Positions 4,472 through 28,765 of a stretch of DNA of 64,000 bases are shown one piece after another. The notes beneath the pieces were generated by a model that was not told where the DNA came from, ran no database searches, and was given only the letters and a program-made list of their open reading frames with translations. The stretch is from Arenicellales bacterium (GTDB lineage: Bacteria > Pseudomonadota > Gammaproteobacteria > Arenicellales > JAJDZL01), in the NCBI GenBank assembly GCA_965219265.1, contig OZ244730.1, positions 1,653,529 through 1,717,528 of the forward strand, written 5' to 3'. Made by a program: the position numbers and the translations under genes. The stretch's first letter is position 1. Every line of letters starts with the position of its first letter.

Positions 4472-4548
4472 CGTCGCTTTGATTAATAAGAACCGTTTCT
4501 ATGAACTACATCAAGAACGTGTGAATTCTATACGATAGGACAATAATC

Positions 4549-4567
4549 ACAAATTTGTCGTGCACCC
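4549..4567. repeat. 19-bp direct repeat, copy 2 (acaaatttgtcgtgcaccc)
   Basis: 18/19 identical to 1163-1181. Confidence 0.7.
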
Positions 4568-5255
4568 TTAATGAGACTAAACATTGACACTAGGGCAGAT
4601 TGTAGAATAAAGTAAATATTGCTATAAATTTCGATTTTTTCTACCAGTTCTCTCTGTGCTGCAGCCTGTTGATTAAAAATCATCAGGCTTAAAGTTCAAC
4701 TCCCCTCGCCGACGCTTTAGCCCAGCCGTCATTCTCAACAGCTATCGTGAAAGAATCAATTGTTCCGCGCAAACTGAATTGCGCTAGCGTGCATCCACCA
4801 ACTACAGAATTTCCCGCAACGACTTGTACCAGTAGAAACTTTCGGAAAACAGTGATATTTCCGCTTAAATGATGTAGCGTTTTCATTATCTGAAATCCCA
4901 GAACTGAAAAGTTTGAACAGTGTGATTGTGACCGAGCTCATTGCTCGTAGCTGAATCCAATAATGACTGGAGAGCATTGAGTCGTTATTTTTATACTAGC
5001 CAAACTCAGCTATTTTTCAGATTTTAATAAATTGGAAATTCTGTTTGGAAGCCGAATAGAATATGCACTAGAGTAACTGACTATAATCAATTGGTATGGG
5101 GTTGGAATCACTGACAGCCCGCCAATTTTCAAATCAGCAAGTCTGAATCGATCGACCTATCTGTAACCTGCGCCGATTCCCAAATTTCCCTTGTGGGTCC
5201 AAACATAAACTCCAACTCTTGCTCAATACCAGTGTCTATCAATTCGTGATTTATC

Positions 5256-5753
<498 letters not shown>

Positions 5754-6098
5754 AGTATGTCTAATCGATCGAGAATATTATTTATAACGCTCTTCAATAA
5801 AAATTATCTCTCGTCTTACATCAATCGTTTGGGTAGTTTTCAATTGTCAATCTGAAAAATACCTCGTGATCTCTTTAGTGGATTTGTCAGAAACTGTCTC
5901 GTCAGCCTTCCAGATGCAGCAAGATTTAATCCGCAGACACTTAATCTGCATAGGGTAGTTCTCATGTGCAAATTTGTTGTGAAATATACGCATAAGACTA
6001 CATGATATTTTATTTCGATGCGCTCCTCAATGCCCTTCGGACACTAAGGAGCGAGTATCATACACATGTGAACCTACACAGGTACAGGAATAGATTAC

Positions 6099-7184
6099 GT
6101 GAGTTTGTATCAATTCCAAGACGCGTCTGGTGTGCTGCTCGATGCTCATTTCGAAGTACGGAACGGCAAGCTGTTCTTGCTGTCTCGAGGCGGTACCAAA
6201 GGCGCCGCAAACGCACGGAATACCCAATATGGCCCGGCATTGCGTATTCTTCTTGAACGAATCAATCAATCAGCTCTGAGTCTGGCCGGTGCGTGGGTCG
6301 ATAGTAGTCGAGTTCAACATTTAACGATGGGGGAAAGACGGATATTGTCGCCTGAAGAAACTGATGTTCCACCGACAAAGTTGTTCACATTATTATCAAG
6401 AAGAATGGCGAAAGTAGGACGTGACCCAAGAAGCCTTAGTCTCGGAAATTCCAACAAAAAACTCCGTTTCATTTTTACGGGAGGTGTATCAGATGAACAA
6501 ATTATCAGAATAGTTGGTTTAGGAGACTTTGGCGATAATTCAAACGGTCGTGGAAGGCTTTTAGCAGCAACTTTGAAGAAAGTTTCTGAAGATCATATCT
6601 GGCGTGCAATTCAACAGCTTCGCTCCGGATCGGTGAAGCATGTATTCGGTGAATTCACTGAATACGATGTTGTGGACCAAGATGTTGGAAAGCGCTGGCC
6701 GCCCAAAGCTATTTTCGGCTTGGCAGCAACCGAGGCTTTAGGGTTTGAGGTTAAACCGGAGCACTTTGAAAATGGCGTACGAACGATCTGCCACAAGAGC
6801 ATCATTCATGCTGGATTCCGCATCGTTAAAAAGAATCAGACTATCCAGTCGAAACAATTGCCGCTGAGTAGCGAAGAAAGAGAATGGGTGGAGGGACAAC
6901 CAAAAATGAAGCAGCATCTGCAGCGGGAACGGGGGGCAGGCATCTCACTGGAGAAAAAAGTGCAGTTCAAGCGTGAACATGGCAGACTGTATTGTGAAGA
7001 TTGTGGATTGGACCCAGTCAAAACCTATGGAGTTCAATTTGGCGAAGCCTGCATCGAAGTGCATCATGTAGTTCCTTTGGCAAAACTGCCACCAGGCTAC
7101 CGCACTAAACTAAGTGATTTAAAATGCCTGTGTGCAAATTGTCATAGGATCGAGCATCGCAGACTTGGAAAAGCCGAACTGTAA
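6099..7184 (+). CDS. McrA-like HNH endonuclease (unknown N-domain + ScoMcrA-head-like domain + HNH)
   Basis: C-terminal CEDC...IEVHH...CLCANCHRIEH; central HIWRAI..F...YD...RWPPKAIFGLA..GF resembles the ScoMcrA N-terminal head pattern. Confidence 0.8.
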   Translation: MSLYQFQDASGVLLDAHFEVRNGKLFLLSRGGTKGAANARNTQYGPALRILLERINQSALSLAGAWVDSSRVQHLTMGERRILSPEETDVPPTKLFTLLSRRMAKVGRDPRSLSLGNSNKKLRFIFTGGVSDEQIIRIVGLGDFGDNSNGRGRLLAATLKKVSEDHIWRAIQQLRSGSVKHVFGEFTEYDVVDQDVGKRWPPKAIFGLAATEALGFEVKPEHFENGVRTICHKSIIHAGFRIVKKNQTIQSKQLPLSSEEREWVEGQPKMKQHLQRERGAGISLEKKVQFKREHGRLYCEDCGLDPVKTYGVQFGEACIEVHHVVPLAKLPPGYRTKLSDLKCLCANCHRIEHRRLGKAEL

Positions 7185-7206
7185 GGCTTAGGTAGTGTAA
7201 AGGCGT

Positions 7207-8735
7207 TTAAGAATTGTCAGGAATATTTTCCAGCACATTTTTCACGATATCGGCAATTTGAAAAGCCAGATACGGAGGCACTGCATTTCCGACTTGATGA
7301 TATTGTGCAGTCCGAGGACCTTCAAATTTGAAATTGTCCGGGAAAGCCTGGAGACGTGCCGCTTCTCTTACACTCAAACTTCTGCATTGAGCAGGATCAT
7401 AGTGGATGAAGTAATGACCGTCCTTTGAAATGTGTGACGTGATGGTAGTACTGATTTTTGATTTTAGCTGTACTCGAAAACGATCTGAAAACATGTTCCC
7501 TGCGCAGGCTTGCCTCGCATTTTTGTGATCAGGTAGGAGTACTTCGGAGAAACACCATAAATGGAGGCATATGATGCAGCGAAAAGATACCTGTGTAGAT
7601 CACTTTCCATATGAGATCTTGATTCATGGGAAATCGTTCCTTTCAATCGAGGATCGTAGTACAACTTCTGCAAAACGCCCGGCGGGTTGTATGCCTTAGA
7701 TGAAATGTTAAATTCGCTTCGCTCAATCGATTTTAAAGTTGCCTGTATATCTGCCTTGATCTCCGGTGAGCCCCAACGGTTTTTTGGGAACCACGAGGAA
7801 CAATCAGCGGAAGCAATGGCATGTTTCCACAGTTCTAGGGAGTCTTTTACACGCGAAACGCCACTTCGAATTTTCGGCATGTTACCGATTACGTTTTCAA
7901 CCGTAGGCGATATCTGTAAATGATTATTCAGACAGCTGGGTCGAACATACAAATCCGATCGAACCCCGAGAATGAAAATTCTATGACGTGCTTGGGGAAC
8001 CCCGTAGTCTTCAGTACGTACTAGATAGGCTACCGCATCTTGGTGCGCACCTTTGTCCGATGTCTGCGACAACGAATACAGGCGATAGGTAAGATCACTG
8101 GTACATCTGCCGCCCGTTTTTCCTGGATTGGATAGATCTTCAATCACCCTGTCCATCAGAAGCCGACCATTTACACGTGCAAACAGCATGCCTTTTACAT
8201 TTTCCATAACAAAGACCGGAGGCCTGTGATCCACGATTGTTTCAAGGTACTCGTGATAGAGTAGGTACCTTTTATCCTTGTCCAGCGAATAGTCTTCATT
8301 CTTTGCCATTCTAGAGCGCCCGGCGAGTGAGTATGCTTGGCATGGTGGTCCGCCGATAAGTGCCCATTTTTTCTCGCCGCTCAGTCGCTATTTGATCAGT
8401 TTTCTAATTTGCAACCGACGGTCTTTACCAAGGGATATTCTTAAAACTGCATTTTCCGCCCGTTTCCAGATTTCCTGATGCTTGCAAATTAATTCTTCTT
8501 TCGAAATGGAACCGTCCAGATAATCGTAGTAGTCGTCGGGTATGTCTTCCGGCCTGAAGCTGTTGAAAAAGTGCCGGAGCACGAGTGTCTGGTGTGCGTA
8601 TTTGTTTTCTTCGAATGCCGCAATCAATTTGAAAGATGGTTTGCGCCCCATGAAGAATCCAGAGAAGCCTTCCCCAAAACCTCCTGGCCCTGCAAAAAGA
8701 TCAATTAATGGATATCGAATGTCAGTATTTTTCAT
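7207..8735 (-). pseudogene. DNA (cytosine-5) methyltransferase with in-frame TAG (8388-8390) and a frameshift (~7541)
   Basis: Motifs DLFAGPGG, GGPPCQ (in frame just past the TAG), [32 protein letters not shown] are spread over three ORF pieces. Confidence 0.9.
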
Positions 8736-8874
8736 ATCGAAGCAATTACAAATTGTTTTCCATCCGCGTTACCGTAGGTCTTCATGCAGCGAAACAATTT
8801 AGTTCTAGGTGAAAGTATCAATCCAACGGCCTTATAATCAAAATATTGCCATTTACGCCTTAGTGTTTTCTTAA

Positions 8875-10949
8875 CCCATCTTTTCCATTTTACCGTTGAA
8901 AAACGCTGATTTGGGGCAATTTACCGCTACCCCAAAATCCTACCGTGTTGTTTTTATTTGATTCTGATTTCTTTTTGTCGCCAAAACCCCGTTGTAGTGT
9001 CCTAATTATTAATATTTATGTTGACATTCATCAGTCCCACACTATAATCAACTTCATGTTCATCCGCAAAATCAAAACCCGAACCCAAAACGGAACCGAC
9101 TACTTCGCGTTTCGCCTGGTCGAGTCCGTTCGCATCGGTGACAAGGTGCGACAGCGCACCTTGCTCAACCTCGGTTCCGACTTCAGCTTGCCGCGTGAAC
9201 AATGGAACGAACTGATCGCCGCCATCGAAGCGCAGCGTTCCACCAATTTGCAACTGCTGTCATTCCCCGAACCTATCGCCCGGCTGGCGGAGCGTATCGA
9301 TGCGCAGCTGTCGCCGAGCAAACCTGCACAAAAGGCACAGCACCATGGTGTTGATCTGAAATCCATGCACCACCGACAACTGCGCAGCATCGGTGGTGAA
9401 ACCGTTGCATTGCATGCGTTGCAACAGTTAAAGTTCGAAGAACTGCTCGCATCGTTGGGGATCCAGGAAAAACGACGCAAACTGGCCATTGCCCAGGTGG
9501 TGGCACGCATGGTGCATCCATCAAGCGAACGCGAATCGTTTCGCTGGCTGTGTGATGACAGCGCGTTATGCGAGCTGCTGGGTCTTTCCATGTCACAGCT
9601 CAAGCTCGGTGCGCTGTATCGTTCAGCCGATGTCATGTACCGTCACCGCGAAGCCATTGAAAGGGTCATGTATCAGCGTCAGTGTGAACTGTTCAAACAC
9701 ACTTCGAGCGTGATGCTGTATGACCTGACCAACACCTACTTCAGCGGGCAGGCACATCTGTCGCCGGGACAGTTCGGACGTTCAAAACAAAAGCGTCATG
9801 ACTGTCCGCTGGTGACGCTGGGCCTGTGTCTGGATGAAAGCGGATTGGTTCGTCGCTGTGAGGTATTGCCGGGCAATGTGTCGGAACCGACGACACTGGC
9901 GAGGGCGGTTGAACGTCTCGGAGCCGGTGGTGGGTCACTGACGGTCGTGATGGATGCGGGTCTGTGCACCGAGGCGAATCTGAAGTGGCTGGATGAAGCC
10001 GGACATGACTGGGTGGCTGTGGTTCGGAAACGAGCCCGGATGCCGGACACAGACGCGGATGTGGAAACGGTGAACAGCAGCCGAGAGCGAATCCGGATCT
10101 GGCGTTTGGATGAAGACGAAAAAGGTCAGGTACAGCTGTGTGTGCATAGTGCGGCAAGACAAAAGACCGAGCGTTCAATGCTGAGCCGGGCGCGCCAGCG
10201 TTTCGAGGACGATCTGAAATACTTGAATGAAGGACTTGGCATTCGCGGACGCTTGAAGCGCCATGATCGGGTGGTGGAGAAGATCGGTCGGCTGCGTAAG
10301 CGTCACAAGCGCGTCAGCGCTCAGTATGACATTGTGGTGAAAGCGGACGACAAGGCACGCAATGCCATTGCCGTGAGTTGGACTTGCAATCACAAACACC
10401 AGGTGCGAGATGATCATGCCGATTCGTATTTACTTCGCACCTCGCTCAGTGACTGGGATGATGAACGCATTGTTCGTCTATATTGGACCTTGAGCGAAGT
10501 GGAGGCGACATTCCGCACTCTGAAGTCGGAGTTGGGGATGCGTCCTATATATCATCACAACAAATCACGGGTGGCGGCGCATCTGTTCATCTCGGTTGTG
10601 GCTTATCAGGCGGTGCATTATTTACGACTGATGCTGCGAGGCAATGGTGTGCGCTCAAGTTGGAATACGGTTCGCAACAAGCTGTCGACCCTGCATCGGC
10701 TGACGACGGTGATGGATGAAGCCAATGGTCAGCAGATCCGTGTTCGTCAGAACAGTGATGCCAGTGCTGAGCAACGTCGGCTGCTATCGGCGATGAAAGT
10801 GGAACTGAATCGGGACCAGCGCATTGAGTGTTGGCCCCGTGAGGAGTTAAGTGTTACAAAAGTAGTGACCTAACGCCTGGTGGCAAAAAATCAAGTAATT
10901 GAAAATAAAAGAATATTCTTGTCACAATTTAAAAAATGGCAAAGATGGG
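8875..10949 (+). mobile_element. IS1634-family insertion sequence (2075 bp)
   Basis: 17-bp terminal IR (cccatcttttccatttt / aaaatggcaaagatggg, 16/17); TTAA on both sides (8871-8874, 10950-10953); GC-richer than flanks. Confidence 0.9.
9056..10873 (+). CDS. IS1634-family DDE transposase
   Basis: MFIRK...RLVESVRIGDKVRQRTLLNLG; YDLTNTYF, VVMDAG, EATFRTLKSELGMRPIYHH motifs. Confidence 0.9.
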   Translation: MFIRKIKTRTQNGTDYFAFRLVESVRIGDKVRQRTLLNLGSDFSLPREQWNELIAAIEAQRSTNLQLLSFPEPIARLAERIDAQLSPSKPAQKAQHHGVDLKSMHHRQLRSIGGETVALHALQQLKFEELLASLGIQEKRRKLAIAQVVARMVHPSSERESFRWLCDDSALCELLGLSMSQLKLGALYRSADVMYRHREAIERVMYQRQCELFKHTSSVMLYDLTNTYFSGQAHLSPGQFGRSKQKRHDCPLVTLGLCLDESGLVRRCEVLPGNVSEPTTLARAVERLGAGGGSLTVVMDAGLCTEANLKWLDEAGHDWVAVVRKRARMPDTDADVETVNSSRERIRIWRLDEDEKGQVQLCVHSAARQKTERSMLSRARQRFEDDLKYLNEGLGIRGRLKRHDRVVEKIGRLRKRHKRVSAQYDIVVKADDKARNAIAVSWTCNHKHQVRDDHADSYLLRTSLSDWDDERIVRLYWTLSEVEATFRTLKSELGMRPIYHHNKSRVAAHLFISVVAYQAVHYLRLMLRGNGVRSSWNTVRNKLSTLHRLTTVMDEANGQQIRVRQNSDASAEQRRLLSAMKVELNRDQRIECWPREELSVTKVVT

Positions 10950-17208: not shown

Positions 17209-20200
17209 ATGTATCGAGGCGGCATCGCCAATAAACTGGGAAACTTGTATGAGCAAGAGTGGGCAGTGCGCAACCTTCTCGAAGTTATTGCAGGCCGTGC
17301 AAACTCAATACGATACGAGGGTATTACGGAAGAATTTACCGGGTTCGAATTCGCGCTCCATCTACAGCACAACGTCGAGTGGCATCAGACAAAAGTTAAC
17401 GCTCCGAATGGAAATTGGACGTTAACCTCTCTAAAAAAAACAGGTGTGATGGATGCATTTAAATCCCGTTTGTCGGCAGATTTAACCGCGAAGTGCGTGT
17501 TTGTTTCTCAAGACCCATCCAATCAAATGCGGGAGCTCTGCAAAAATGTCGAAATCTCGAACAATTTGGATGAGTTCAAGAAGGCATTGTCCCAAAAGGA
17601 CACAGATACATTGAAAAATCTAACAGTCATTTGGAGTACTGATGAGAGTACTGCATACAAATGGTTGCGACGTTGTAAGTTCCGGACGGAATCTCGGGAA
17701 TCGATCATCGAATTCATCGACATGTTCGGTAAGCATTTACTACAAGGCAACGCTAACGTATTCGAAACCTTTTCAATTTATCTGCTCACAAACCTAAATG
17801 CAAGTATCACGACCGAAACCGTAAGAGAATGGGTCACCGAACATAGTCCTTTTAGGCTTCCGCCTTCTCTTGACACAACGCTTCATCAAAAAATTGATGA
17901 TGCCAACCAACAATATCTTTCAAGTTATATGCCCTTTGGCTTCGGGGGACAACAGATCCAAAGACCTGAATCCCAGTACGTTGCTGATGAAATTCTTTCT
18001 GCAAATGGGCCGTCCTTGATCATTCTGACAGGAGTTGCTGGCAGCGGAAAGTCAGGAATCGTTAGAGAAATTATGGTTGAATTGAAAAACCGAAATGTTC
18101 CTCACCTTGCATTCAGGATTGATCGTTACCTTTCCTACGCAACAAGAAACCAAATTGGCCGGGATCTTTTAGAGTGTGACCAAAGTCCAGTCAGTGCCTT
18201 GGAAACTCTGGCAAAAAACAAAACATCCGTCCTGATCATTGACCAAATTGATGTAGTGAGCGAAACATCCGGACGAACAGGTGCCGTCAAGGATGTCTTA
18301 TTAGAGCTTGTCCGGGAAGCTGAACACTATGGCGATGTCAGATGTCTTTTAGTCTGTCGCAGTTTCGATCTAGAAAATGATCCGCAATACCGAATTCTCG
18401 AAAAGATGGATAGGGCTAAGCAGGTACAAGTTCCACACCTGTCTTGGAAAAGCGATGTCGCGCCTATTCTTGAAAATACTGGAGTTGTGATAGACAGATT
18501 AAACGAAAGCCAACGAAAATTACTGACACTTCCAGTCAATCTTTCCGTCTTTCTCAAAATTGACGAGTCTAACTTGGATTTCACTACCACCACAGATTTA
18601 TTGCAAGAACTGCTAGACAAGAAAATCCGTGATCTTCAAGCGAACCGCAATGTCGCATGGAATACTATGAAACCATTGTCCGCTATGGCAGATTGGATGA
18701 GCGAACACCAAGAACTGAGTTGCCCAGACTTTGTTTTGAATGAATATGACCAATCAAAAGAATGGTTAGCTTCAGAAGGCTTGATTATTGTTGAGCAAAA
18801 CAAACTGGCATTCTTTCATGAAAGTTTTTTCGATTTCATCTTTGCGCGAACTTTCGCAAATTCAACCCAAAACATCTCCGACTTCCTTACTACGACGGAG
18901 CAGCATCTCTTTCGACGCACTCAAGTGAGGCAAATCCTAACCTTAATGCGGGATACCGGTGGACCCCGTTACTCGGAAGCTCTGACTAGCATTTTGACTA
19001 CTCCCAACATTCGGTTCCACATAAAACTCGCCGTTGCACAGTGGTTAGCCACGCTCGACAACGTCACGGTGGAGGAACTAAGAGTTATACAGATGCTTGA
19101 CGATGACGGTGCGGAGTTTCCAGTCCTAATGCGAAATGCAATCTTCACATCGGAGTCTTGGTTCGATCTTCTGAACGACATTGGAGAACTTTTCAACATG
19201 CTTGAGAAATTGGAGAAACCACGACGCCGTCAATTGCTTGTGTGGTTGAGCAGGATCATCGGCAAACACCCACTATTTGTGGCGGAACTCCTGAAAAACT
19301 GGTGGGACAGCAATCCCGCACGACGAGATGAAATAATCGAGTGGTTCGACTTCGTGTCCCCAATTCCTGTAGATCAAGTGTTGACTGCTCTGTTATACGA
19401 CGTAGTGCGTTCTGCGCCTGAAAATTTCCTATCTCGCATCAAATGGAACAAGATAGTAGCACATGTACTTGACCTGTGCGTGGTGAATCCCGAAGCATCC
19501 TCGAAAATCTTGCAGTTGCTGTTAGCGGAATGGTTCAAGCGTAATCCTGGCGAACATTTGTTCACACACGACGGAATGGGAGAAATCGATTTATTGGATC
19601 TTGATCGCTTAGCAGAAAAGGCACCACCGGTCTTCTTAAATTGCATGATTCCAGCACTTGTAAATTCCATCCAAATTGCTGTGAGCGATAGTAGCCCCAG
19701 TTCACAATTCCATGTTCTTTACAGAACTAGTACCGGAAGGGGCCCCAATAAACTCTTTTCCCTTTTTCGTGATGCGTTGCAGACTCTCGCTAAAACGTTA
19801 CCCCAAGAAGCTGAATCGTATCTGGGCCAACTCGACCCGAAGCTTCATGAAGCGTTGCTACATCTGCATCTGGAAACGATTCAGACGAATCCAACCGCTT
19901 TGGGATATCGTTTTGCGGCATTGCTCAACGAGCGGTATCTTTTTTCAGCTGGGCTGGAACAGGTCGAATGGTTGTCGTTTGCTGAAACAGCGCGAAAGGT
20001 TGTCGAAGCGGGATGCCTGTCCATCCAGACCGTTGAGAAACGGATATTTCGTCATCAACCAGAGATTGAGTCAGCACGGGGTATACTACATGACATAAAA
20101 AAGAAAGGAGAGACAAACTCCATTTGGGAAAGGCGTGATGTTGTAGTTAGATTGTCGAATTCTGGGCGTGTTCAATGGTATGTGCTAAGGTCAATCGGAC

Positions 20201-21756
20201 ACAACCTTCTTTCACCATCCGGCAAGAAAAGATTGTTGGAGTTAGAACGAAAATTTCACGCCGAGGTTGTTCCGGTCCCACATACTTACGAAGCCAAACG
20301 GGTTGGTTCACCGATTCCGACTCCCGTTGCCCGTAGAATGACAGACAGTCAATGGTATTCCGCTATTAATAAACATGTGGAAAGTAATTCGACATCATTT
20401 CTCGTAGACGGGAAAGTTGTCGGTGGAGCATTGCAATTAGCGCAAGAGTTGGACGAACTTACCGCATCCGATCCAAACCGGTTTGCGCAATTTTTTCTGG
20501 GATTACCCGAGATCTCCAATCCAGCATACGGTCGGTCTTTGCTTCAAGGGCTGACTCGTGCTGAACATCTGGACGAGATTGCAGTGATTTCGGTTCTTTG
20601 CAAGGCTCATGAAAATCCAAATCGACCATTCGGACTGCAAATTGTCCGACTTCTTGAGCGCCATCCAGTTTATGCGCGAGACAGCAATGTTTTTGCGGTA
20701 TTGCTTTGGTACGCAGAACACGGCGATGCAAATGAGACAATATTTGCCAGCGACAGAGAACAACTAGGATCGTTGCCCTCAATTGATGAACTTAGTCGTG
20801 CCAGCAGTTCTCTGATTAGCAACGGGATAAACTCGGCCCGCGGAGTCGCTTGGATTAGCTTAGGGCGGTTGGTTCAAAACAATCCGCAACGTGTCGCAGA
20901 TATCTGGAATCTTCTTGAGCGCCGGGCGTATGAAGAGACCTACCCCTGGGTGCGGGCTATGATGGTTTATACACTGTCTGCACTCTACAGTCTCGATCTG
21001 ACTCGGTTCAGCAAGTGTCTTCACCTTCTCACAAAAGCTATTTCTGGTGAACGGGACGAAGTCTCTTCCTTAGCACCGTTAACAACTGATTACGGCATCC
21101 GTCTTTACCATCACATCGAGCGCGACTTCCCGAGCATGGCGTTGGAATTGATGGGGAGAATGATTGGCTCGGAGGACAGGAGAATTCATTTGATAGGGTC
21201 ATGGTGGACGCTAGCCGAAAGGTTGCGGCAGGGCAACTCAAAGAACAATTTCCCGCTGATTGAGCAAGAGTCACCTGCCCATTCTAAACTTTGGGCGTCA
21301 ATTCTTTGCGAGTTTGTTGCAAGTACCGAATTCAGGAATCTAGCAACTTCAGAGCTTGAAAGGCTATTTTTTCATGAATCCTCCGAGGTAAGAAAGGAGG
21401 CTGGAAATGTATTCTCGCACTTTCCAAACGACGAATTTCCTTCCTTTAAGGATTTGGCGAGAAAATTCGTACGTTCTCCTGCATTCAAGGACTCCACTTA
21501 TTCATTTTTTACGGTGTTGACAAAGACAACCTGCGATGTCTCCGAACTTGTCATTGAGGCAGTTGAAATTGTTGTTTACAAATGGAAAAACTACGGGTTG
21601 ATTTCCGCCCTTAACATACAGAATATTCTAAAAAGGGAATATGTTAACACTGAAAGTCTGCCAGAGCTTCGCACTAAAGTTCTAAATCTATTTGATTACA
21701 TGGCTGAAAATAGTGTGATTGGAGTGGATGATGTCATGGGGATGGATGATCGATAG
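17209..21756 (+). CDS. PD-(D/E)xK-like nuclease - STAND NTPase - helical repeat protein (Avs-like antiphage sensor)
   Basis: N-terminal GGIANKLGNLYE..W, FEF..WHQTK; Walker A GVAGSGKS; Walker B LIIDQID; FFHESFFDF STAND motif; long helical C-terminus. Confidence 0.8.
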   Translation: MYRGGIANKLGNLYEQEWAVRNLLEVIAGRANSIRYEGITEEFTGFEFALHLQHNVEWHQTKVNAPNGNWTLTSLKKTGVMDAFKSRLSADLTAKCVFVSQDPSNQMRELCKNVEISNNLDEFKKALSQKDTDTLKNLTVIWSTDESTAYKWLRRCKFRTESRESIIEFIDMFGKHLLQGNANVFETFSIYLLTNLNASITTETVREWVTEHSPFRLPPSLDTTLHQKIDDANQQYLSSYMPFGFGGQQIQRPESQYVADEILSANGPSLIILTGVAGSGKSGIVREIMVELKNRNVPHLAFRIDRYLSYATRNQIGRDLLECDQSPVSALETLAKNKTSVLIIDQIDVVSETSGRTGAVKDVLLELVREAEHYGDVRCLLVCRSFDLENDPQYRILEKMDRAKQVQVPHLSWKSDVAPILENTGVVIDRLNESQRKLLTLPVNLSVFLKIDESNLDFTTTTDLLQELLDKKIRDLQANRNVAWNTMKPLSAMADWMSEHQELSCPDFVLNEYDQSKEWLASEGLIIVEQNKLAFFHESFFDFIFARTFANSTQNISDFLTTTEQHLFRRTQVRQILTLMRDTGGPRYSEALTSILTTPNIRFHIKLAVAQWLATLDNVTVEELRVIQMLDDDGAEFPVLMRNAIFTSESWFDLLNDIGELFNMLEKLEKPRRRQLLVWLSRIIGKHPLFVAELLKNWWDSNPARRDEIIEWFDFVSPIPVDQVLTALLYDVVRSAPENFLSRIKWNKIVAHVLDLCVVNPEASSKILQLLLAEWFKRNPGEHLFTHDGMGEIDLLDLDRLAEKAPPVFLNCMIPALVNSIQIAVSDSSPSSQFHVLYRTSTGRGPNKLFSLFRDALQTLAKTLPQEAESYLGQLDPKLHEALLHLHLETIQTNPTALGYRFAALLNERYLFSAGLEQVEWLSFAETARKVVEAGCLSIQTVEKRIFRHQPEIESARGILHDIKKKGETNSIWERRDVVVRLSNSGRVQWYVLRSIGHNLLSPSGKKRLLELERKFHAEVVPVPHTYEAKRVGSPIPTPVARRMTDSQWYSAINKHVESNSTSFLVDGKVVGGALQLAQELDELTASDPNRFAQFFLGLPEISNPAYGRSLLQGLTRAEHLDEIAVISVLCKAHENPNRPFGLQIVRLLERHPVYARDSNVFAVLLWYAEHGDANETIFASDREQLGSLPSIDELSRASSSLISNGINSARGVAWISLGRLVQNNPQRVADIWNLLERRAYEETYPWVRAMMVYTLSALYSLDLTRFSKCLHLLTKAISGERDEVSSLAPLTTDYGIRLYHHIERDFPSMALELMGRMIGSEDRRIHLIGSWWTLAERLRQGNSKNNFPLIEQESPAHSKLWASILCEFVASTEFRNLATSELERLFFHESSEVRKEAGNVFSHFPNDEFPSFKDLARKFVRSPAFKDSTYSFFTVLTKTTCDVSELVIEAVEIVVYKWKNYGLISALNIQNILKREYVNTESLPELRTKVLNLFDYMAENSVIGVDDVMGMDDR

Positions 21757-21825
21757 TCTGATTCTACTTACTCCTCAAAAAACTAAACGCATGAAGCAAG
21801 CCAATAGTACTGGAAATTCAATCGG

Positions 21826-21911
21826 AAATGTTGCGGAATAGATTATGTTGCGAGTATTAGTTATCGCGCTGAAATCAAATTGATAGTTTTTGAAACTCGC
21901 AACATAATTTT
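21826..21911. repeat. Outer RIT left inverted repeat (86 bp)
   Basis: 83/86 identical to reverse complement of 28606-28691; contains ttatgttgcg motifs. Confidence 0.9.
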
Positions 21912-21961
21912 CATCATCAGGTGTGCGACCATGATGGATTTAACCCGATGGGGAGTCTATC

Positions 21962-23212
21962 ATGTTCGAAACAATTTTTTCGCGTCCTTGCACGATTGCG
22001 ATTCATCAAGCGGCACCTTTGTATGAAGAAAGATGCCGATATCTGTTACGCCATGCACAAAGTGGCGCAACTGCGGATACGTTGCGCGCAATAGCGCATG
22101 ACCAACTGAGCCTGATCAATCATCTGAATCTGCAAGCGAACCAAAGAATCAGTGTTCGCCAGATCGAGGATGCTGCCAGCGATTGGCTGAATGGATTTGT
22201 ACAGCGTTTCGGCCACGAACCTTCGCTCAAAAGAAGGAAACGATTTATCCATTGCGCACGCAACTGGCTGCGTTTTATTGGGTGGTTAAGCGAGTCGAGA
22301 TTGTCTCGTCATCGTTATGAAGCCGAAGTTTCCATGTTCAACACATTCGCACAACAGCAATGTGGCCTTTCTGACGCATACGTCAACTCTATTTGCAATG
22401 TTGCCGATCGGTTTTTTGAGTGGCTGGAGCAACATGGTCTGAGTCTGGATGAGCTGCGTCTGAGCGACATCGATGAGGCATTGGTGAGCGACCGGATCTT
22501 TGGTCAATGCAGTCGTAACACAACCAAAACACAGATCAATTGCCTGGGCAGGTTCCTTCGCTATGCAGAACAACAACGCTGGTGCGTGGCAGGGTTGGCC
22601 GACGGCATCAAGCCGCCACGGATGTTCCCGAATGAGACGATTCCAATGGGGTTGGGCCGAGATGAGGTGTTGAAATTGCTGGCCACGACCGAAAGCGATC
22701 GTGCGATCGACAAACGTGATCGGGCAATATTAATGGTGTTGAGCACTTATGGGTTGAGATCCAGCGAGGTGTGTGGTTTGACACTTGATGACCTGAGCTG
22801 GACCGATGAGCTTTTGACGGTCCGTCGCTGCAAGAGCGGACAAATCCACATTTATCCATTGTCACAAGCGGTCGGGGAGGCAATTGTCAGGTATCTTCGC
22901 GAGGTCCGTCCTTTGGTTCGACAACGGACATTGTTCCTGACGATGAATGCACGGCGCGGCCCGATCACCAGGCAAGGCGTTTATATGATGGTCGTTGGAC
23001 GGTTGAAAAAAATTGGCATCGCTGGCAAAGGCAAGGATCCGCATGCACTGCGTCACGCAGCGGCTCAACATCTGCTTGAGCACAATCAATCGATGAAAGT
23101 GATCGCAGACTATCTCGGACACCGTAATGTAGACTCGGCTTCGGTCTATGCCAAGATTAATCTGAACCAATTGCGAGAGGTTGGCGATGTCAGCCTGGAG
23201 GGGTTGATATGA
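21962..23212 (+). CDS. ritA: Tyrosine recombinase RitA (outer)
   Basis: GLRSSEV, HALRH, LGHRNVDSASVYA; GGGGAG RBS. Confidence 0.9.
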   Translation: MFETIFSRPCTIAIHQAAPLYEERCRYLLRHAQSGATADTLRAIAHDQLSLINHLNLQANQRISVRQIEDAASDWLNGFVQRFGHEPSLKRRKRFIHCARNWLRFIGWLSESRLSRHRYEAEVSMFNTFAQQQCGLSDAYVNSICNVADRFFEWLEQHGLSLDELRLSDIDEALVSDRIFGQCSRNTTKTQINCLGRFLRYAEQQRWCVAGLADGIKPPRMFPNETIPMGLGRDEVLKLLATTESDRAIDKRDRAILMVLSTYGLRSSEVCGLTLDDLSWTDELLTVRRCKSGQIHIYPLSQAVGEAIVRYLREVRPLVRQRTLFLTMNARRGPITRQGVYMMVVGRLKKIGIAGKGKDPHALRHAAAQHLLEHNQSMKVIADYLGHRNVDSASVYAKINLNQLREVGDVSLEGLI

Positions 23213-23957
23213 AACTTCACCAGGCAATCGAGCGCTACATCGCATGGCGACGCATTCACGGTGCGAAGTTCAAAGCCGGCGCACAGCATCTGCGACAGTT
23301 CTCAAATTCGGTCGAGCGGGATATCGACTGCAAGGCAGTTTCCCAGAGCGAAGTTTGCAGATTTCTTGCGGGAAACCGACCGCTGACCAAAACGCGGTCC
23401 CATCGTTACAGCGCACTGCGAGGGTTTTATCGCTATGCTATCGCTCGAGGCTACACCACGCTGTCGCCTTTGCCCGACCCGGATCAGGAACCGAGACCAC
23501 CGCAATCAAAATTGCCTCATGTTTTCAGCCCTGATCAACTGCAGCGCATGTTTGGCACGATCGATCAGTGTCACAGCCGTCGCTCCAAACTCGATGCATT
23601 CACGTTCCGCACCTTGCTGCTATTGCTTTGTGGCAGTGGGTTGCGCATCGGTGAGGCTCTTCAACTCACGCTGACCGACATCAATCTGCAAAACACGGTC
23701 TTGACAGTGAGAGACAGTAAATTCTACAAAAGCCGGCTGGTGCCAATTGGACCTCAACTGAATGCGCTGCTCAGTGCATATGCCAAACAACGTGTGAAGC
23801 GAACGCTGTCGAACGGAAAAAATTCAACTTTTCTAGCCTATATCGATGGCTCGGCGTTAACCTATAAAACAGTTGATATGGCTTTTTCCAAATTGAGAGA
23901 CGCCGTGCCACTGTGTGTAATCGACCGCTTTCATCAGCGCCCAACCTTGCACAGTTT

Positions 23958-23993
23958 TCGTCATTATCTCGGGTACATTTTTATCTCGGGTAA
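23958..23993. repeat. Inner RIT left inverted repeat incl. core tcgtca (36 bp)
   Basis: Perfect reverse complement of 27354-27389; two ttatctcggg motifs. Confidence 0.95.
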
Positions 23994-24082
23994 ATTAGAT
24001 ACTGCATTGTTTTTCAGATAGATAGCACGTCTTTACACGACATAATCGAAGCTTCTTTTTTACATCAAATCAGGAGTTCGAT

Positions 24083-25327
24083 ATGAAGTATTTCACAGAC
24101 GATCAACATGTTGTACACCAAAGCTGGCTCATCGGTCCATTGGCTGGCTGGCTTGTTTCATTTGCGAAATGGCTGTGTGCAAAGGGTTATGCGGCCCGCA
24201 CAATCGATGAGAAGGTACGGCTGATTTCCGGATTCAGCCTGTGGCTGAAAGAAGAGGCAATCGAAGTGGCTGACATCACACTGAACCATCTCAATCAATA
24301 CCTGCAGTATCGGCGGCAACGCCGGACCTCAAATAGAAGAGGCGAAAAACGCACACTTGAGCAATGCATGGCTTTTCTACAGCAGAAAGGCCAGATTCTC
24401 TCCGCTGCGCTGCCTGAAGAGCCGAAGACTTCGGTCGAATTGCGCATGCAGTCCTATGAAGGCTATTTGCGACATGTTCGTGGCCTGGCACCGACGACGA
24501 TTGCATCATATCTGACATTTGTCAGAAGTTTTCTGCAGCATTGTTTCGCCTCAGAGAACGTTACCCTTTCGCGTCTGTCGTCTCAAGATGTTGTGGAATT
24601 TGTTCAACAGCAGGCACCGCGGCTGCATCCCAAAAGAGCAAAGCAAATGTCCACTGCACTGAGATCATTTCTTCGGTATGCCTGTTACCTTGGAGAGACG
24701 GGCTTGGAATTAGTCGGCGCAGTCCCTTCATCGGCCAACTGGCAGATGCTCAGCATCCCGCGAGGGATCTGTACGGAGCAGGCCGAAAAACTGCTGGCCA
24801 GCATTCATCGCGATACCGCTGCAGGCCGACGCGACTATGCCATTGTGATGCTGTTTGCACGGCTGGGACTTCGGGTGAGCGAGGTTCAGCGGCTCCGTTT
24901 CGATGACATTGACTGGGTCAACGGGACCTTGCGGCTGCAAACAAAAGGCAAAAAGTGCAGAACTGTACCACTGACTGAGGAGCTTGGCGAAGCGATTGTC
25001 GATTACCTGTGTCACGGGCGCCCGAAGTGTGCGAGCCGTCATGTGTTTGTGCGCGCGCAAGCTCCGGTTGAGGAATTCCGCAACGTTTCCAGCATATGCG
25101 CAATCATTGGTCGTGCGATCGCACGTGGCGGCATTGTCGCACCGACAAATGGGACGCACCAGTTCCGTCACGGGTTAGCCATACAGATGCTGCGCAGAAA
25201 ACTGTCGCTGGAACAGATCGGCGATGTTCTGGGGCACTCCCACCCCGACACGACCCGAATCTACGCCAAGGTCGATTTGGAAGCTTTGCGTTCACTGGCC
25301 CTTCCTTGGCCGGGAGGCGTCGAATGA
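24083..25327 (+). CDS. ritA: Tyrosine recombinase RitA (inner)
   Basis: GLRVSEV, HQFRH, LGHSHPDTTRIYA; AGGAG RBS. Confidence 0.9.
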   Translation: MKYFTDDQHVVHQSWLIGPLAGWLVSFAKWLCAKGYAARTIDEKVRLISGFSLWLKEEAIEVADITLNHLNQYLQYRRQRRTSNRRGEKRTLEQCMAFLQQKGQILSAALPEEPKTSVELRMQSYEGYLRHVRGLAPTTIASYLTFVRSFLQHCFASENVTLSRLSSQDVVEFVQQQAPRLHPKRAKQMSTALRSFLRYACYLGETGLELVGAVPSSANWQMLSIPRGICTEQAEKLLASIHRDTAAGRRDYAIVMLFARLGLRVSEVQRLRFDDIDWVNGTLRLQTKGKKCRTVPLTEELGEAIVDYLCHGRPKCASRHVFVRAQAPVEEFRNVSSICAIIGRAIARGGIVAPTNGTHQFRHGLAIQMLRRKLSLEQIGDVLGHSHPDTTRIYAKVDLEALRSLALPWPGGVE

Positions 25328-26274
25328 ATACACTTCGCGAAGCCATCCACGAATATATTGAAATGCGCCGTCATCTTGGATTCAAACTGAAGCAGGATTG
25401 TCGCCTGCTGCATCAGTTTGCCAGTTTCATGGAACAGCACGAGAAGCCGTTCATCACAGTTGAGCTGGCGGTGCGTTGGGCTCAGCAGCCCCACGATGCG
25501 CAGCTGGCATGGTGGGCGAAACGATTGAGCGTTGTGCGCGTGTTTGCGCGCCATCGCAAGGCGACCGATCCGCGCACTGAAATTCCGCCTTGTGAGCTGC
25601 TGGCAGTTCAACCCAAGCGGGCAAAGTCCTATCTGTATTCAGATCAACAGATCTGCGACCTGCTGCAAGCGGCCCGGAAGATGCCCTGCTCGTATGAACA
25701 GACTTCTTTGCGTCCATGGATTTATCATTGCCTTTTCGGTCTGCTTGCCGTCTCTGGAATGAGGGTGGGAGAGGTGTGTAATCTTGAGGTTCGAGATGTC
25801 GATCTTGACGCGGCAGTTTTAACGATACGCAACGCCAAATTCGGCCGCGACCGTCTGATTGCGCTGCACCGTTCAACCTGCGATGTCATTGCCGATTACA
25901 TCGCTCGACGCGAGCGCCACTGGCGAGGTCGCTGCGTGTCGTCCTATCTATTTGTTTCGAGCCGTGGAAACAGAATCGATCCTTCTGACATCAACCGCAC
26001 ATTCCACAAACTGTCACGGCAGATTGGACTTCGCGGCGAAACCGACGGTCACTGTCGCAGGCCGCGCGTCCATGACTTGAGGCATTCATTCGCGACAAAA
26101 GTTTTAGCGCTGGGGTATCGGAACCATGAGAATCCAGAATGGACTGTGCCGATTCTATCAACTTGGCTCGGTCATGTGAAGATTGCAGATACGCAATGGT
26201 ATCTGCAAGCCTCGCCGCAGCTCCTGGATGAAGCCATGCGCCGGCTCGAAACTCGATGGGAGAACCAGTCATGA
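25324..26274 (+). CDS. ritB: Tyrosine recombinase RitB (inner)
   Basis: MNTLREAI start at ATGA overlap; GMRVGEV, HDLRH, LGHVKIADTQWYL. Confidence 0.9.
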   Translation: MNTLREAIHEYIEMRRHLGFKLKQDCRLLHQFASFMEQHEKPFITVELAVRWAQQPHDAQLAWWAKRLSVVRVFARHRKATDPRTEIPPCELLAVQPKRAKSYLYSDQQICDLLQAARKMPCSYEQTSLRPWIYHCLFGLLAVSGMRVGEVCNLEVRDVDLDAAVLTIRNAKFGRDRLIALHRSTCDVIADYIARRERHWRGRCVSSYLFVSSRGNRIDPSDINRTFHKLSRQIGLRGETDGHCRRPRVHDLRHSFATKVLALGYRNHENPEWTVPILSTWLGHVKIADTQWYLQASPQLLDEAMRRLETRWENQS

Positions 26275-27293
26275 CCTGCTCAACTAGTCTTGCTCCGATT
26301 CTTGAGCGGTTTTTCATTCAGCGTCTGACCAATCAGCGCCAGGCGAGCCCGCACACGATCAAATCGTACAGCGATACCTTTCGCCTCCTGCTGGGATTTG
26401 TTGAGCGGCGTCTTCAACTGGAACCGTCGAAACTTCAATTTGAGCACATTGACGCGAGGATCGTTACGGATTTCCTTGAGGAATTGGAAACGCTGCGCAA
26501 GAACAGCGTGCGCAGCCGCAACCAGCGGCTTGCGGCGATTCATTCTTTTTTTCGTTATGCCGCCTTTGAACTGCCGATGCATGCGCAGCAGATCCAAAGC
26601 GTGCTTGCGATTCCGAGTAAACGCTGCACGCGCAAGCAGATCAGTTTTCTCAGCCGTCAGGAGGTCGATGCGCTGCTGGCCGCACCGAATGCGAAAACCT
26701 GGTCTGGGCGCCGTGATCACGCGTTCATTCTCACTGCTGTGCAAACCGGCTTTCGGCTCAGCGAAATGACGGCGCTGAGGCGCAGCGACTTGGTCGATTC
26801 GGGTGGTTATAACCTGTGCGTTGTCGGCAAAGGACGAAAGGAACGTCGCACGCCTTTGGCTAAAGCGACCCGAAAAGTACTGAACAAATGGATTCAGGAA
26901 CCGCCGCGTGGTACGCAAGGCATTCTCTTTCCCAGCGCAAAAGGAAATCGCTTGGGTGTCGACGCAGTGCAAGATCTGTTGAATAAGCATCGCAAGACCG
27001 CCTCATATCAGTGTCCATCACTGGCTGACAAGCGAGTATCCGTACATCTGCTGAGACATACAGCAGCCATGGAACTTCTTCAGGCAGGAATCGACCGGTC
27101 TGTGATCGCACTTTGGTTGGGACACGAGCGTCTCGAAACCACCCAAATTTATATTGAGGCAACGCTCGCGATGAAAGAGCAGGCACTGGCCAAGACATCG
27201 CCGCGAGAAGGAAATGGGCAACGATACCAACCGCCTGACAGACTGATGACTTTTCTGAGCAATCTCGGGAGGCCTGCGGATTATCTCGGGTAA
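26271..27293 (+). CDS. ritC: Tyrosine recombinase RitC (inner)
   Basis: GFRLSEM, GKGRK, HLLRH, LGHERLETTQIYI; ATGA overlap. Confidence 0.9.
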   Translation: MTCSTSLAPILERFFIQRLTNQRQASPHTIKSYSDTFRLLLGFVERRLQLEPSKLQFEHIDARIVTDFLEELETLRKNSVRSRNQRLAAIHSFFRYAAFELPMHAQQIQSVLAIPSKRCTRKQISFLSRQEVDALLAAPNAKTWSGRRDHAFILTAVQTGFRLSEMTALRRSDLVDSGGYNLCVVGKGRKERRTPLAKATRKVLNKWIQEPPRGTQGILFPSAKGNRLGVDAVQDLLNKHRKTASYQCPSLADKRVSVHLLRHTAAMELLQAGIDRSVIALWLGHERLETTQIYIEATLAMKEQALAKTSPREGNGQRYQPPDRLMTFLSNLGRPADYLG

Positions 27294-27353
27294 TTTCAAC
27301 GCAAGGGGCAGATGTTCTGCATGAAATCTGCCCTTTAGCGTACTCGCAAACCG

Positions 27354-27415
27354 TTACCCGAGATAAAAATGTACCCGAGATAATGACGATTATCTCGTTA
27401 ACGAGATAATCGTCA
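27354..27415. repeat. Inner RIT right IR plus perfect 32-bp palindrome (27384-27415)
   Basis: tgacgattatctcgttaacgagataatcgtca is its own reverse complement. Confidence 0.95.
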
Positions 27416-27603
27416 CACATTTGCGGTTCATCGGCTAACCGACTGGTATCGCCAAGGTGCTGACGTTCAACGTCTGTTGCCGCTGCTGTCAAACTATCTC
27501 GGACACAGCAGTCTGCAAAGTACGCAGATTTATTTGTCCGTGACACCGCAGTTGCTACAGCACACTTCGGTGCTGTTCAACCAATACGTAAACGGAGATC
27601 ATC

Positions 27604-28599
27604 ATGAATAAGCTACCCATGTTAAGTCCTTGGTTGCGGCGGTTTTTTACTGAACACATCAGCACCGAACGCAATTTAGCGGTGAATACCCGCAAAAGTT
27701 ATCGCGACACCTTCGTGATGCTGTTGCCCTACATAGCCACCCATTCCCGAAAATCGGTGGAACGGCTGTTAATTAGCGATATCACAGCACAGCGTGTGCT
27801 GGGGTTTCTCAATCACATCGAAACCGAGCGCGGCTGCACCGCGCAAACTCGCAACCAGCGCTTGAGCGCCATACGGGTGTTTACTCGCTACGTATGCAGC
27901 CGCAATCCCGCCTGTGTCGAGTGGGCCGGCAGCCTGCGTGCCATTGTCAACAAAAAGACCCGACCTGGACAGGTTTCGTGGCTGACCAAAGATCAAATCG
28001 AGTCGATCTTGGAGGTGCCCAATACCCGAAAATTCAGAGGCCGAGTCGAGTACGCACTGCTGCTGTTTCTCTATAACACAGGCGCTCGTGTGTCGGAGGC
28101 TATCGGATTGAGCGTCAGCAACCTTCAATTCGGCCAAAATAACGGGCGCCACGCCCTGGCCACCATCATGGGCAAAGGCGGCAAACTGCGCCAATGTCCG
28201 CTTTGGCCACGTACCGAAAAGGCGCTTCTTGAGTTGGTTGACAATAAACTCGACAGCGCCCCGGTGTTTGTAAGTCAACTGGGACAATCCTACACCCGTT
28301 TTGGAGTCTATCGGTTAGTGCAACGGTGCGCTGCCGCAGTTCCTGAACTGTCACAGCGGAACATCACACCGCATGTGATGCGACACAGTTGCGCCTGCCA
28401 TTTGCTTCGCGCCGGTGTCGACCTTAACACCATCCGATCATGGCTCGGTCACGTAAGTCTTGATACCACCAATATCTATGTCGCCATTGACCTGGATATG
28501 AAAGTTGATGCGATGCGAATTTGTGATACTGTGGAGATAAAATCGCCACCAAGCTGGAAGCAGGACACCAAGACAATGGCCTTCCTTAATTCACTGTGA
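27604..28599 (+). CDS. ritC: Tyrosine recombinase RitC (outer)
   Basis: GARVSEA, GKGGK, HVMRH, LGHVSLDTTNIYV. Confidence 0.9.
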   Translation: MNKLPMLSPWLRRFFTEHISTERNLAVNTRKSYRDTFVMLLPYIATHSRKSVERLLISDITAQRVLGFLNHIETERGCTAQTRNQRLSAIRVFTRYVCSRNPACVEWAGSLRAIVNKKTRPGQVSWLTKDQIESILEVPNTRKFRGRVEYALLLFLYNTGARVSEAIGLSVSNLQFGQNNGRHALATIMGKGGKLRQCPLWPRTEKALLELVDNKLDSAPVFVSQLGQSYTRFGVYRLVQRCAAAVPELSQRNITPHVMRHSCACHLLRAGVDLNTIRSWLGHVSLDTTNIYVAIDLDMKVDAMRICDTVEIKSPPSWKQDTKTMAFLNSL

Positions 28600-28605
28600 G
28601 TGTGA

Positions 28606-28719
28606 AAAATTATGTTGCGAGATTCAAAAACTATCAATTTGATTTCAGCGCGATAACGAATACTCGCAACATAATCAATTCCGCAACATTTTCGATTTTA
28701 TGTTGCATGCAACATAAAA
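28606..28719. repeat. Outer RIT right IR (28606-28691) plus perfect 24-bp palindrome (28696-28719)
   Basis: ttttatgttgcatgcaacataaaa palindrome follows the IR. Confidence 0.9.
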
Positions 28720-28765
28720 CCGGCAGTGACAATATGATGCGCCAGATGTTTACAAAACAATCCAA

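Follow-up and report, generated by a model that had tools for sequence, protein, structure and literature searches.

Nested recombinase-in-trio elements share a one-sided palindromic module that is probably part of the mobile unit

The 64,000-nt stretch of Arenicellales bacterium DNA analysed here (contig OZ244730.1, positions 1,653,529 to 1,717,528; hereafter the window) holds two recombinase-in-trio (RIT) elements, one nested within the ritB gene of the other, and both end asymmetrically. On one side a 6-bp core adjoins the left terminal inverted repeat (IRL); on the other, the right repeat (IRR) is followed by an inverted core, a 20-bp palindrome and a further core in direct orientation. 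What is the one-sided palindrome for, and does it travel with the element? An earlier note had proposed that the two RITs share this end grammar, that recombination between the left and inner inverted cores would invert the gene trio, that recombination between the left and outer direct cores would excise it, and that core drift marks the outer element as older and immobilised. Below, T stands for the ritABC trio, M for the palindromic module and c for a 6-bp core (c1 beside IRL, c2 between IRR and M, c3 beyond M), and X and Y are the two flanks of the target; IRR-c-M is called beta and its counterpart M-c-IRL alpha.

Every part of the proposed grammar was present in both elements (Table 1); it looks functional, and it recurs in 79 loci described below. 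With the cores included, the terminal inverted repeats are 36 nt long and 100% complementary in the inner RIT, and 92 nt long (21820-911/28606-97) and 96% complementary in the outer. The inner c2-M-c3 together form a perfect 32-bp palindrome, and the inner M occurs twice in the genome, only beside the two copies of the inner element. The note's count of about three end-motif copies per end also held, the internal copies at 24033-46 and 27281-93 both being real.

Copies at other sites revealed the limits of the unit. A second inner RIT, 100% identical over 3428 bp, lies at genome position 1853423-1856850 within the H-S-F-R-H codons of the ritB of a third RIT, on the other strand. Its order is tgacga-palindrome-tcgtca-IRL...IRR-tgcctg, that is, with M on the ritA side; in both inner copies M is on the His (C-terminal) side of the host ritB, and the trio is flipped between them. 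The cores of this copy are caggca, tgacga and tcgtca, and the hexamers that flank it (caggca and tcgtca), either of which would encode Arg-His, are unequal and so are not a target duplication. Its host, the third RIT (C1:1852100-1859014, equal to 3100-10014 of locus L005; minus strand), has about 66% nucleotide identity to the outer RIT and the same end grammar, but an inner spacer of 5 nt instead of 6.

Copies of the outer RIT that are 99% identical to it likewise occur elsewhere, flanked by different cores. Two of these (L098 and L099; L numbers denote loci and G numbers genomes), with 100%-identical RitA, are in the related Arenicellales genome OZ244867.1. L099 has an unbroken ritB with a single core (...cacagttt tcgtca cacatttg...), which is thus an empty site for the inner RIT. 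From this single tcgtca it follows that the inner mobile unit comprises everything from the IRL tip to the end of the palindrome, together with one core, so that the direct core, proposed as one partner in excision, stands as the boundary of the unit. In L099 the palindrome of the outer RIT is on the ritA side and the cores are ccgatt, aactgg and ccggtt, which means that the outer family has moved and exists in both arrangements. Homologues in opposite orientation relative to the palindrome, which the earlier note had named as the decisive observation, therefore exist for both elements: the 100%-identical inner copy in the same genome and the outer copy L099. A search of genome G401 for further empty sites found the third RIT, the inner RIT and the left flank of the window all absent. 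The ritC of L098 carries two further insertions, one of about 1.8 kb after ...ctgttaattag and another after ...gcgacacagtt (6863-8661; beyond 9281).

We then asked how general these ends are. A 400-genome sample of the phylum yielded only 8 other genomes, and a single-protein locus search with the inner RitB returned no close relatives; profile-guided scans, adopted instead, gave 79 loci of the inner RitA clade and 79 of the outer clade, the RitA proteins of the two clades being only 29% identical. A clear M, defined as two inverted end-motif copies 6 bp from an inverted repeat (IR) tip, was present in 79 loci. Of these, 76 belong to the 158 surveyed and count among the 114 that have clear terminal repeats; the other three are in the window's own genome (both inner copies and the outer one). 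Among 114 loci with strong IRs, 38% had a 20-mer at least 9/10 palindromic abutting an IR end, compared with 1.1% of control windows placed 150-450 bp further out. The end motif stood at offsets 0(+), 17(+) and 74(-) from both tips in most M loci of both clades (33-38 of 38 clade-O, or outer, loci), except that at the right end of the inner clade the third copy lay at 95-97(-) instead (34 of 41 clade-I, or inner, loci). In all 79 M loci, the IRR tip, 6 bp and the adjacent half of M made a Xer/dif-like dyad with arms of about 10-11 bp and a 6-bp centre, whose symmetry stops at the spacer because most cores are not self-complementary. The classical named RITs are included: M is on the ritA side in pNGR234a, and on the ritC side in pHG1 and one copy in EbN1 plasmid 2. 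The ends thus share a conserved architecture that looks like a functional component of RITs. The idea that the M halves match the subterminal rather than the terminal motif was dropped, as a slight preference appeared in the outer clade only.

Two loci had odd ends. L132 (4300-4365) carries two identical tandem modules 12 nt, or two cores, apart (CTGCAG-M-CTGCTG-GCCCAG-M-CTGCAG-IRL), and its sister L134 has one. In L058 (5897-5935), an IRR lacking its last 6 nt and its core abuts a complete IRL of the same type (...caggaagggt/ctatctaccc...); a tandem copy, a deletion or faulty assembly might explain this.

Of the 79 M loci, 38 had M on the ritC side (arrangement R) and 41 on the ritA side (arrangement L; p = 0.82). 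When inner-clade loci were turned so that M lay on the right and their flanks were joined, the target's box II (...H-x-x-R-H-x-x-A...) read forward in 34 loci and backward in 0, with M on the His side in all 34 R-H-codon targets. The 34:0 polarity and the 38:41 split together mean that M always joins flank Y and the IR tip always joins flank X, while the orientation of the trio is random. The same constant joining was found in outer-clade families within IS66-type transposase genes.

Whether the trio is turned in place or placed in either orientation at insertion could be read from families of at least 95% identity that include both arrangements and have asymmetric (imperfect) palindromes, which show the orientation of M itself (n = 7). 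In five families (L146-150, L102/108/111/169, L142-145, L047/048 and L056/062) M pointed the same way with respect to the trio and opposite ways with respect to the host. On comparison of the sequences this pattern is a cyclic permutation, IRL-T-IRR-c-M against M-c-IRL-T-IRR, which implies a joined-end (circular) intermediate that would be opened on either side of M. In the other two (L019/L021, from the same genome, and L035/L036) the trio was inverted against M, with M fixed in the host frame, and a more distant pair, L115 and L146, also differed in this way. The inversion predicted from the left and inner cores thus fits two of the seven families, and the other five show cyclic permutation instead.

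Inversion in place could nevertheless be the main route, with the left core recombining with the inverted inner core to flip ritABC past a fixed M, as in a fim/Hin-type switch; we regard this as unlikely. It would explain the two families and the distant pair, inversion between inverted sites 3.4 kb apart is sterically easy, and the commonest core state is all three equal, as repeated local exchange would yield. A c1 by c2 inversion, however, cannot make M flip with the trio in the host frame, as it does in five of the seven informative families, and L146-150 lie in the same codons of separate, RIT-disrupted copies of an IS66-type transposase gene, which means that their orientation was determined on insertion. 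All copies of this gene found in G403 are occupied at the codons ...HLPLYRQ/SQIY... (L146-L150, L191, L192; also L126 and L141), and the occupation and disruption of all copies favours independent homing insertions with orientation fixed at integration. L142-145 occupy one site in each of the four copies of a ~1.4-kb repeat (G402), all four being filled, and both orientations occur at equivalent sites of paralogous host genes. From these comparisons, both re-integration and inversion in place seem to have occurred, re-integration probably the more frequently.

The cores were less uniform than the modules. With c2' denoting the complement of c2, the three cores (c1, c2', c3) of the 79 loci were all equal in 26, equal only for c1 and c3 in 16, only for c2' and c3 in 11 and only for c1 and c2' in 9, and all different in 17, so that c1 equalled c3 in 42 of 79. 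Within families, core variants were shuffled among the three positions. A simple rule would produce such patterns: a new c1 would be the core of the target, the core beside M would be the c1 of the donor, and either alpha or beta would be used. Single steps of this rule connect the loci within each of two series, L108 (R) to L111 (L) to L102 (L), and L145 (L) to L142 (R) to L143 (L), and the arrangement switches at the points that the rule demands. The second inner copy, with its cores written in this form (caggca, tcgtca, tcgtca), is the expected product of a donor like the first copy (tcgtca in all three positions) at a new site. The cores are thus best read, from sequence alone, as probable crossover spacers rewritten at each event and not as decayed duplications. 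As the three cores differ in many intact, multi-copy elements, unequal cores are normal and drift is no sign of age or immobility; together with the 99%-identical copies of the outer RIT elsewhere, this removes the grounds for calling the outer element old and immobilised. The outer copy of the window is disabled by the inner insertion within its ritB, not by core drift.

Some loci departed from the standard form, and all of these variants obey the same rule of joining IR with X and M with Y. Trios lacking M lie between two inverted X arms in L192 (G403), L200 (EbN1), L054, L070, L074 and L078, and L065 has M on both sides of the trio and two Y arms (Y'-M-T-M-Y); the tandem modules of L132 count among these variants as well. 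A solo, perfect 48-bp palindrome containing the outer M, with no trio, is at C1:1865315-1865362 (L005 16315-16362) and reads tgtcagtt-ccgatt-ttatgttgca/tgcaacataa-aatcgg-aactgaca, with flanks that both resemble IS21-type terminal-repeat tips. About 430 bp from it is an IS21-family element (IstA/IstB, L005 13561-15882). Another solo module is in EbN1 plasmid 2, about 1 kb from an M-less trio. Such variants would be the products expected if a resident beta site recombined with a second target in cis. A solo palindrome reciprocal to the M-less L192 was sought in G403 and was not found, all six modules there adjoining RITs.

Together, these results make it probable that M is integral to the RIT unit and that a joined-end form carries two mirror-image sites, either of which can integrate. 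The mobile unit would be IRL-ritABC-IRR-core-M, and M would act in cis as two back-to-back recombinase-binding arms of the IR-tip motif, making with the 6-bp spacer and each IR tip a Xer/dif-like arm, 6 bp, arm crossover site. In a chromosomal copy, beta (IRR-c2-M) would be complete, and X-c1-IRL and M-c3-Y would be the two junctions. Recombination of c1 with c3 would excise the unit and restore X-core-Y, and the resulting circle would carry beta and alpha as mirror images around M, either of which could recombine with a target, with flank X always receiving the IR arm and flank Y the M arm. Joining fixed in this way, through alpha or beta alike, would leave M on one constant side of a polar target, with the trio in either orientation about equally often. 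The cores need not match and would be rewritten as in Tn554, SE or Tn916 elements, with the IR-side core taken from the target, the M-side core from the donor and c2 kept as an older record. In side reactions, a resident beta recombining with c1 would invert the trio against M, and beta recombining with other targets in cis would leave M-less X-T-X' copies and solo Y'-c-M-c-Y palindromes. Seen directly in the sequences are the architecture and its conservation, the empty site, the two arrangements with their fixed polarity, the cyclic permutation and the patterns of the cores; the circle, the binding of protein to the motifs, the order of strand exchange and the separate roles of RitA, RitB and RitC are what we infer from these patterns.

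Several points weigh against this reading. M-less copies exist, some of them on named plasmids, and M may be dispensable for some reactions. The pairs L019/021 and L035/036 need an extra inversion of trio against M. The core-transfer rule fits the data but is not the only explanation that does, as segregation of heteroduplexes fits too. Many of the surveyed loci come from metagenome-assembled genomes, yet both arrangements are also present in finished isolate replicons. Nielsen et al. 2017 (PMC5737581) reported exonuclease-protected RIT DNA and found no circle junctions in paired reads; they also described 47-51-bp imperfect palindromes at RIT ends and suggested hairpin intermediates. We did not accept IRR-core-M-core-IRL junctions in assemblies as proof of circles, since a de Bruijn graph that contains both arrangements makes the same path. 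Finally, the accessible literature apparently lacks a description of the one-sided M with its three cores, of the 0/17/74 array and of the two arrangements and their fixed polarity, but Ricker et al. 2013, which lay outside our comparison, may hold part of this.

A more specific form of the proposal, which we put forward tentatively and think somewhat more apt to fail than to hold, combines a joined-end intermediate whose two mirror-image sites share one palindromic arm pair with SE/Tn554-like, homology-independent exchange, so that the cores would be a two-step ledger, the resident site would remain active and labour would be divided among the recombinases. If so, each copy would record its history, the IR-side core giving the present target, the M-side core the previous site and the inner core the site before the last switch. 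The resident IRR-core-M would stay active and drive the inversions and deletions that give M-less trios and solo palindromes, and the three recombinases would split the IR arms, the M arms and the motif-less target arms between them.

It is also conceivable, but we think very unlikely, that M is a telomere-resolvase-like or hairpin site cut at its centre and that RITs move as linear, hairpin-ended DNA. The perfect 32-bp palindrome of the inner RIT and the perfect 48-bp solo palindrome are what such a site might look like, and the authors who reported exonuclease-resistant RIT DNA without circle junctions themselves suggested hairpin intermediates (PMC5737581). Templating from a hairpin would, however, perfect the palindrome, and in multi-copy intact families M is only 6-7/10 palindromic, its asymmetry stably inherited; cyclic permutation requires joined ends, c2 is often unlike the complement of c3, and solo palindromes are explained by beta recombining with a second target. 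Slightly less probable still is that M is a regulatory hairpin, a terminator or operator that insulates or autoregulates the element and is no recombination site. A consensus scan does call c2-M-c3 a terminator-like stem beside the second inner copy, and promoter-like hexamers overlap motif copies; but the halves of M copy the IR-tip motif exactly 6 bp from the tip, M switches sides of the trio and always joins the same target flank, and the solo and double-M variants follow the logic of recombination. That the palindrome belongs to the target, or is due to chance or assembly, has nothing in its favour beyond the position at the element's edge and can be set aside, as the empty ritB site has no palindrome, the enrichment is 38% against 1.1%, finished plasmids have the module and, in the window's own genome, M is only beside RIT ends, bar the one solo copy.

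As for targets, the inner clade enters other tyrosine-recombinase genes at their Arg-His codons. Members of the outer RIT family insert into a sequence like an IS21-type terminal repeat, at 8 bp from its tip (TGTCAnTnCCGGTTTAAATnCCCC; window 21790-21825 and 28718-28740, L099 4320-4345 and 7777-7830), and outer-clade relatives lie within IS66 transposase genes, as does ritA1B1C1 of Cupriavidus metallidurans CH34 (PMC2864759). The third RIT is within an IS4-type (DDE_Tnp_1 + DUF4372) transposase gene at ...RWQVELF/FKWIKQ.... It seems that lineages of RITs home to conserved motifs in the enzymes of other mobile elements and inactivate them.

The window elements resemble the RITs described in C. 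metallidurans CH34, C. necator pHG1, pNGR234a and Aromatoleum EbN1 (Van Houdt 2009/2012, PMC3414803; PMC2864759) in having three co-directional tyrosine-recombinase genes with ATGA overlaps, products of about 415, 316 and 335 aa with R-H-R-Y-type motifs, terminal inverted repeats and insertion in mobile-element genes. In the accessible literature a RIT is a trio plus terminal inverted repeats (PMC3414803; PMC8138268; PMC10214605), and Table 1 of a 2023 review (PMC10214605) gives target specificity, empty site and movement of RITs as 'not tested'.

Among better-studied systems, Tn554/SE-type elements come close: they too are multi-recombinase tyrosine transposons with site-specific targets and, when joined, a 6-bp spacer between imperfect inverted end motifs. 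They have two recombinases (one large, one ordinary) with TnpC/Srap, and Tfp in SEs, whereas RITs have three recombinases; and unlike RITs they have a single attS, one insertion orientation and no palindromic module or second mirror-image site. At their junctions the target's 6 bp stand on one side and a donor 6-bp 'fingerprint' on the other, with no true target duplication (PMC10214605). Their exchange of attL with attR is strand-biased and yields a circular copy while no empty site is left behind. The second inner RIT copy (caggca against tcgtca) and the two core series fit this junction rule, but c1 equals c3 in more than half of the M loci.

Rit proteins are among the Xer-like 'simple' tyrosine recombinases (PMC8138268). 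Sites of XerC/XerD, namely dif, pdif (the dif modules of Acinetobacter plasmids) and the attP of CTX phage, have arms of about 10-11 bp around a 6-bp centre, as RIT sites do, and oppositely oriented dif/pdif sites likewise bracket movable or invertible segments. RITs differ in that the recombinases are encoded by the element, two sites share one palindrome back to back and the target has no recognisable arms. Elements of the Tn916/CTnDOT type tolerate heterologous 6-7-bp coupling or overlap sequences that pass from donor to new site via a circle, which resembles the behaviour of RIT cores, but they have a single integrase with arm-binding sites plus Xis, no palindromic third arm and large conjugative cargo. 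In fimS/FimBE, Hin/Gin and shufflons, inverted sites flank a segment that occurs in both orientations, as in RITs; most orientation differences among RITs, however, are cyclic permutations at integration, and no phase-variable output gene is evident. We know of no tyrosine-recombinase transposon for which a double mirror-image attachment site is on record.

Known since 2009, RITs occur widely in the chromosomes and plasmids of bacteria. The architecture set out here predicts the bases at which crossover would occur, the junction of the intermediate, insertion that is polar for M but random for the genes, and mismatched flanking hexamers. For annotators, the true boundary of a RIT would on one side lie beyond the IR by 6 bp and a further 20 bp, and orphan palindromes and M-less trios would be explained as by-products. 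RITs, mechanistically unsolved, thus gain a concrete and testable model of transposition.

Table 1 Features of the inner and outer RIT elements in the window.
Feature	Position in window	Strand	Remarks
Inner core c1 tcgtca	23958..23963	.	t + Arg codon cgt + ca of the outer ritB His codon
Inner IRL	23964..23993	+	two TTATCTCGGGTA copies, offsets 0 and 17 (17 bp apart)
Inner third left motif copy	24033..24046	-	inverted, degenerate, 11/13 match, offset ~74
Inner ritA	24083..25327	+	414 aa; PF00589 and SAM-like domains; HQFRH and GH..Y intact
Inner ritB	25324..26274	+	316 aa; ATGA overlap with ritA
Inner ritC	26256..27293	+	start ATG 26256 or ATGA-overlap start at 26271; 340-345 aa
Inner third right motif copy	27281..27293	+	perfect match; inverted relative to IRR copies; ends in ritC stop codon
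Inner IRR	27354..27383	-	100% complementary to IRL
Inner internal core c2 tgacga	27384..27389	.	with IRR and left half of M, complete arm-6 bp-arm site (beta)
Inner module M ttatctcgtt/aacgagataa	27390..27409	.	perfect palindrome; two back-to-back end-motif copies
Inner outer core c3 tcgtca	27410..27415	.	right boundary of mobile unit; single tcgtca in L099 empty site
Outer core c1 aatcgg	21820..21825	.	crossover spacer adjoining IRL, by comparison with L098/L099
Outer IRL	21826..21911	+	AAATGTTGCG at offset 0, TTATGTTGCG at +17, inverted copy at 21895-21908
Outer ritA	21962..23212	+	416 aa; PF00589; HALRH and GH..Y intact; RitA 100% identical to L098/L099
Outer ritB 5' part	23209..23963	+	interrupted within H-S-F-R-H codons; gene intact in L099
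Outer ritB 3' part	27416..27607	+	rejoined to 5' part gives 316-aa RitB
Outer ritC	27604..28599	+	331 aa; PF00589
Outer IRR	28606..28691	-	inverted-repeat partner of IRL
Outer internal core c2 tcgatt	28692..28697	.	between IRR and M
Outer module M ttatgttgca/tgcaacataa	28698..28717	.	on ritA side in L099; solo copy at genome 1865315-62
Outer outer core c3 aaccgg	28718..28723	.	beyond M

The genes themselves are those of ordinary RIT members, in which neighbouring genes overlap by 4-8 bp and encode proteins of about 410 (RitA), 315 (RitB) and 330-345 aa (RitC). Both trios consist of three adjacent, co-directional tyrosine-recombinase genes (416/316(split)/331 and 414/316/340-345 aa), PF00589 is matched by all six rit frames, the split outer ritB included, and the overlaps are ATGA at 23209, 25324, 26271 and 27604. 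The box II motifs are HALRH, HQFRH, HDLRH, HLLRH and HVMRH, each followed by GH..Y, and joining the flanks of the inner insertion recovers the HSFRH of the outer RitB that this insertion splits. The IRs enclose three ordinary-sized recombinases without a fourth conserved gene. Over its full length, the inner RitA has 48-51% identity to those of the trios of pHG1, EbN1 plasmid 2 and pNGR234a, all three of which are named as RIT carriers in PMC3414803; for the pHG1 and EbN1 copies, RitA identity is 48-50%.

Promoter scans gave weak 9/12 matches, and we claim no orientation-dependent promoter. One such match, TAGATA-16-CATAAT (9/12), lies upstream of the inner ritA at window 24019-24046 and also at L005 4485-4512; its -10 hexamer overlaps the third, inverted motif copy, and Rit proteins may autoregulate there. 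To the left of the outer RIT, a gene for a 1515-aa NACHT-domain protein occupies 17209-21756, and its stop codon directly precedes a short, apparently orphan IS21-type end.

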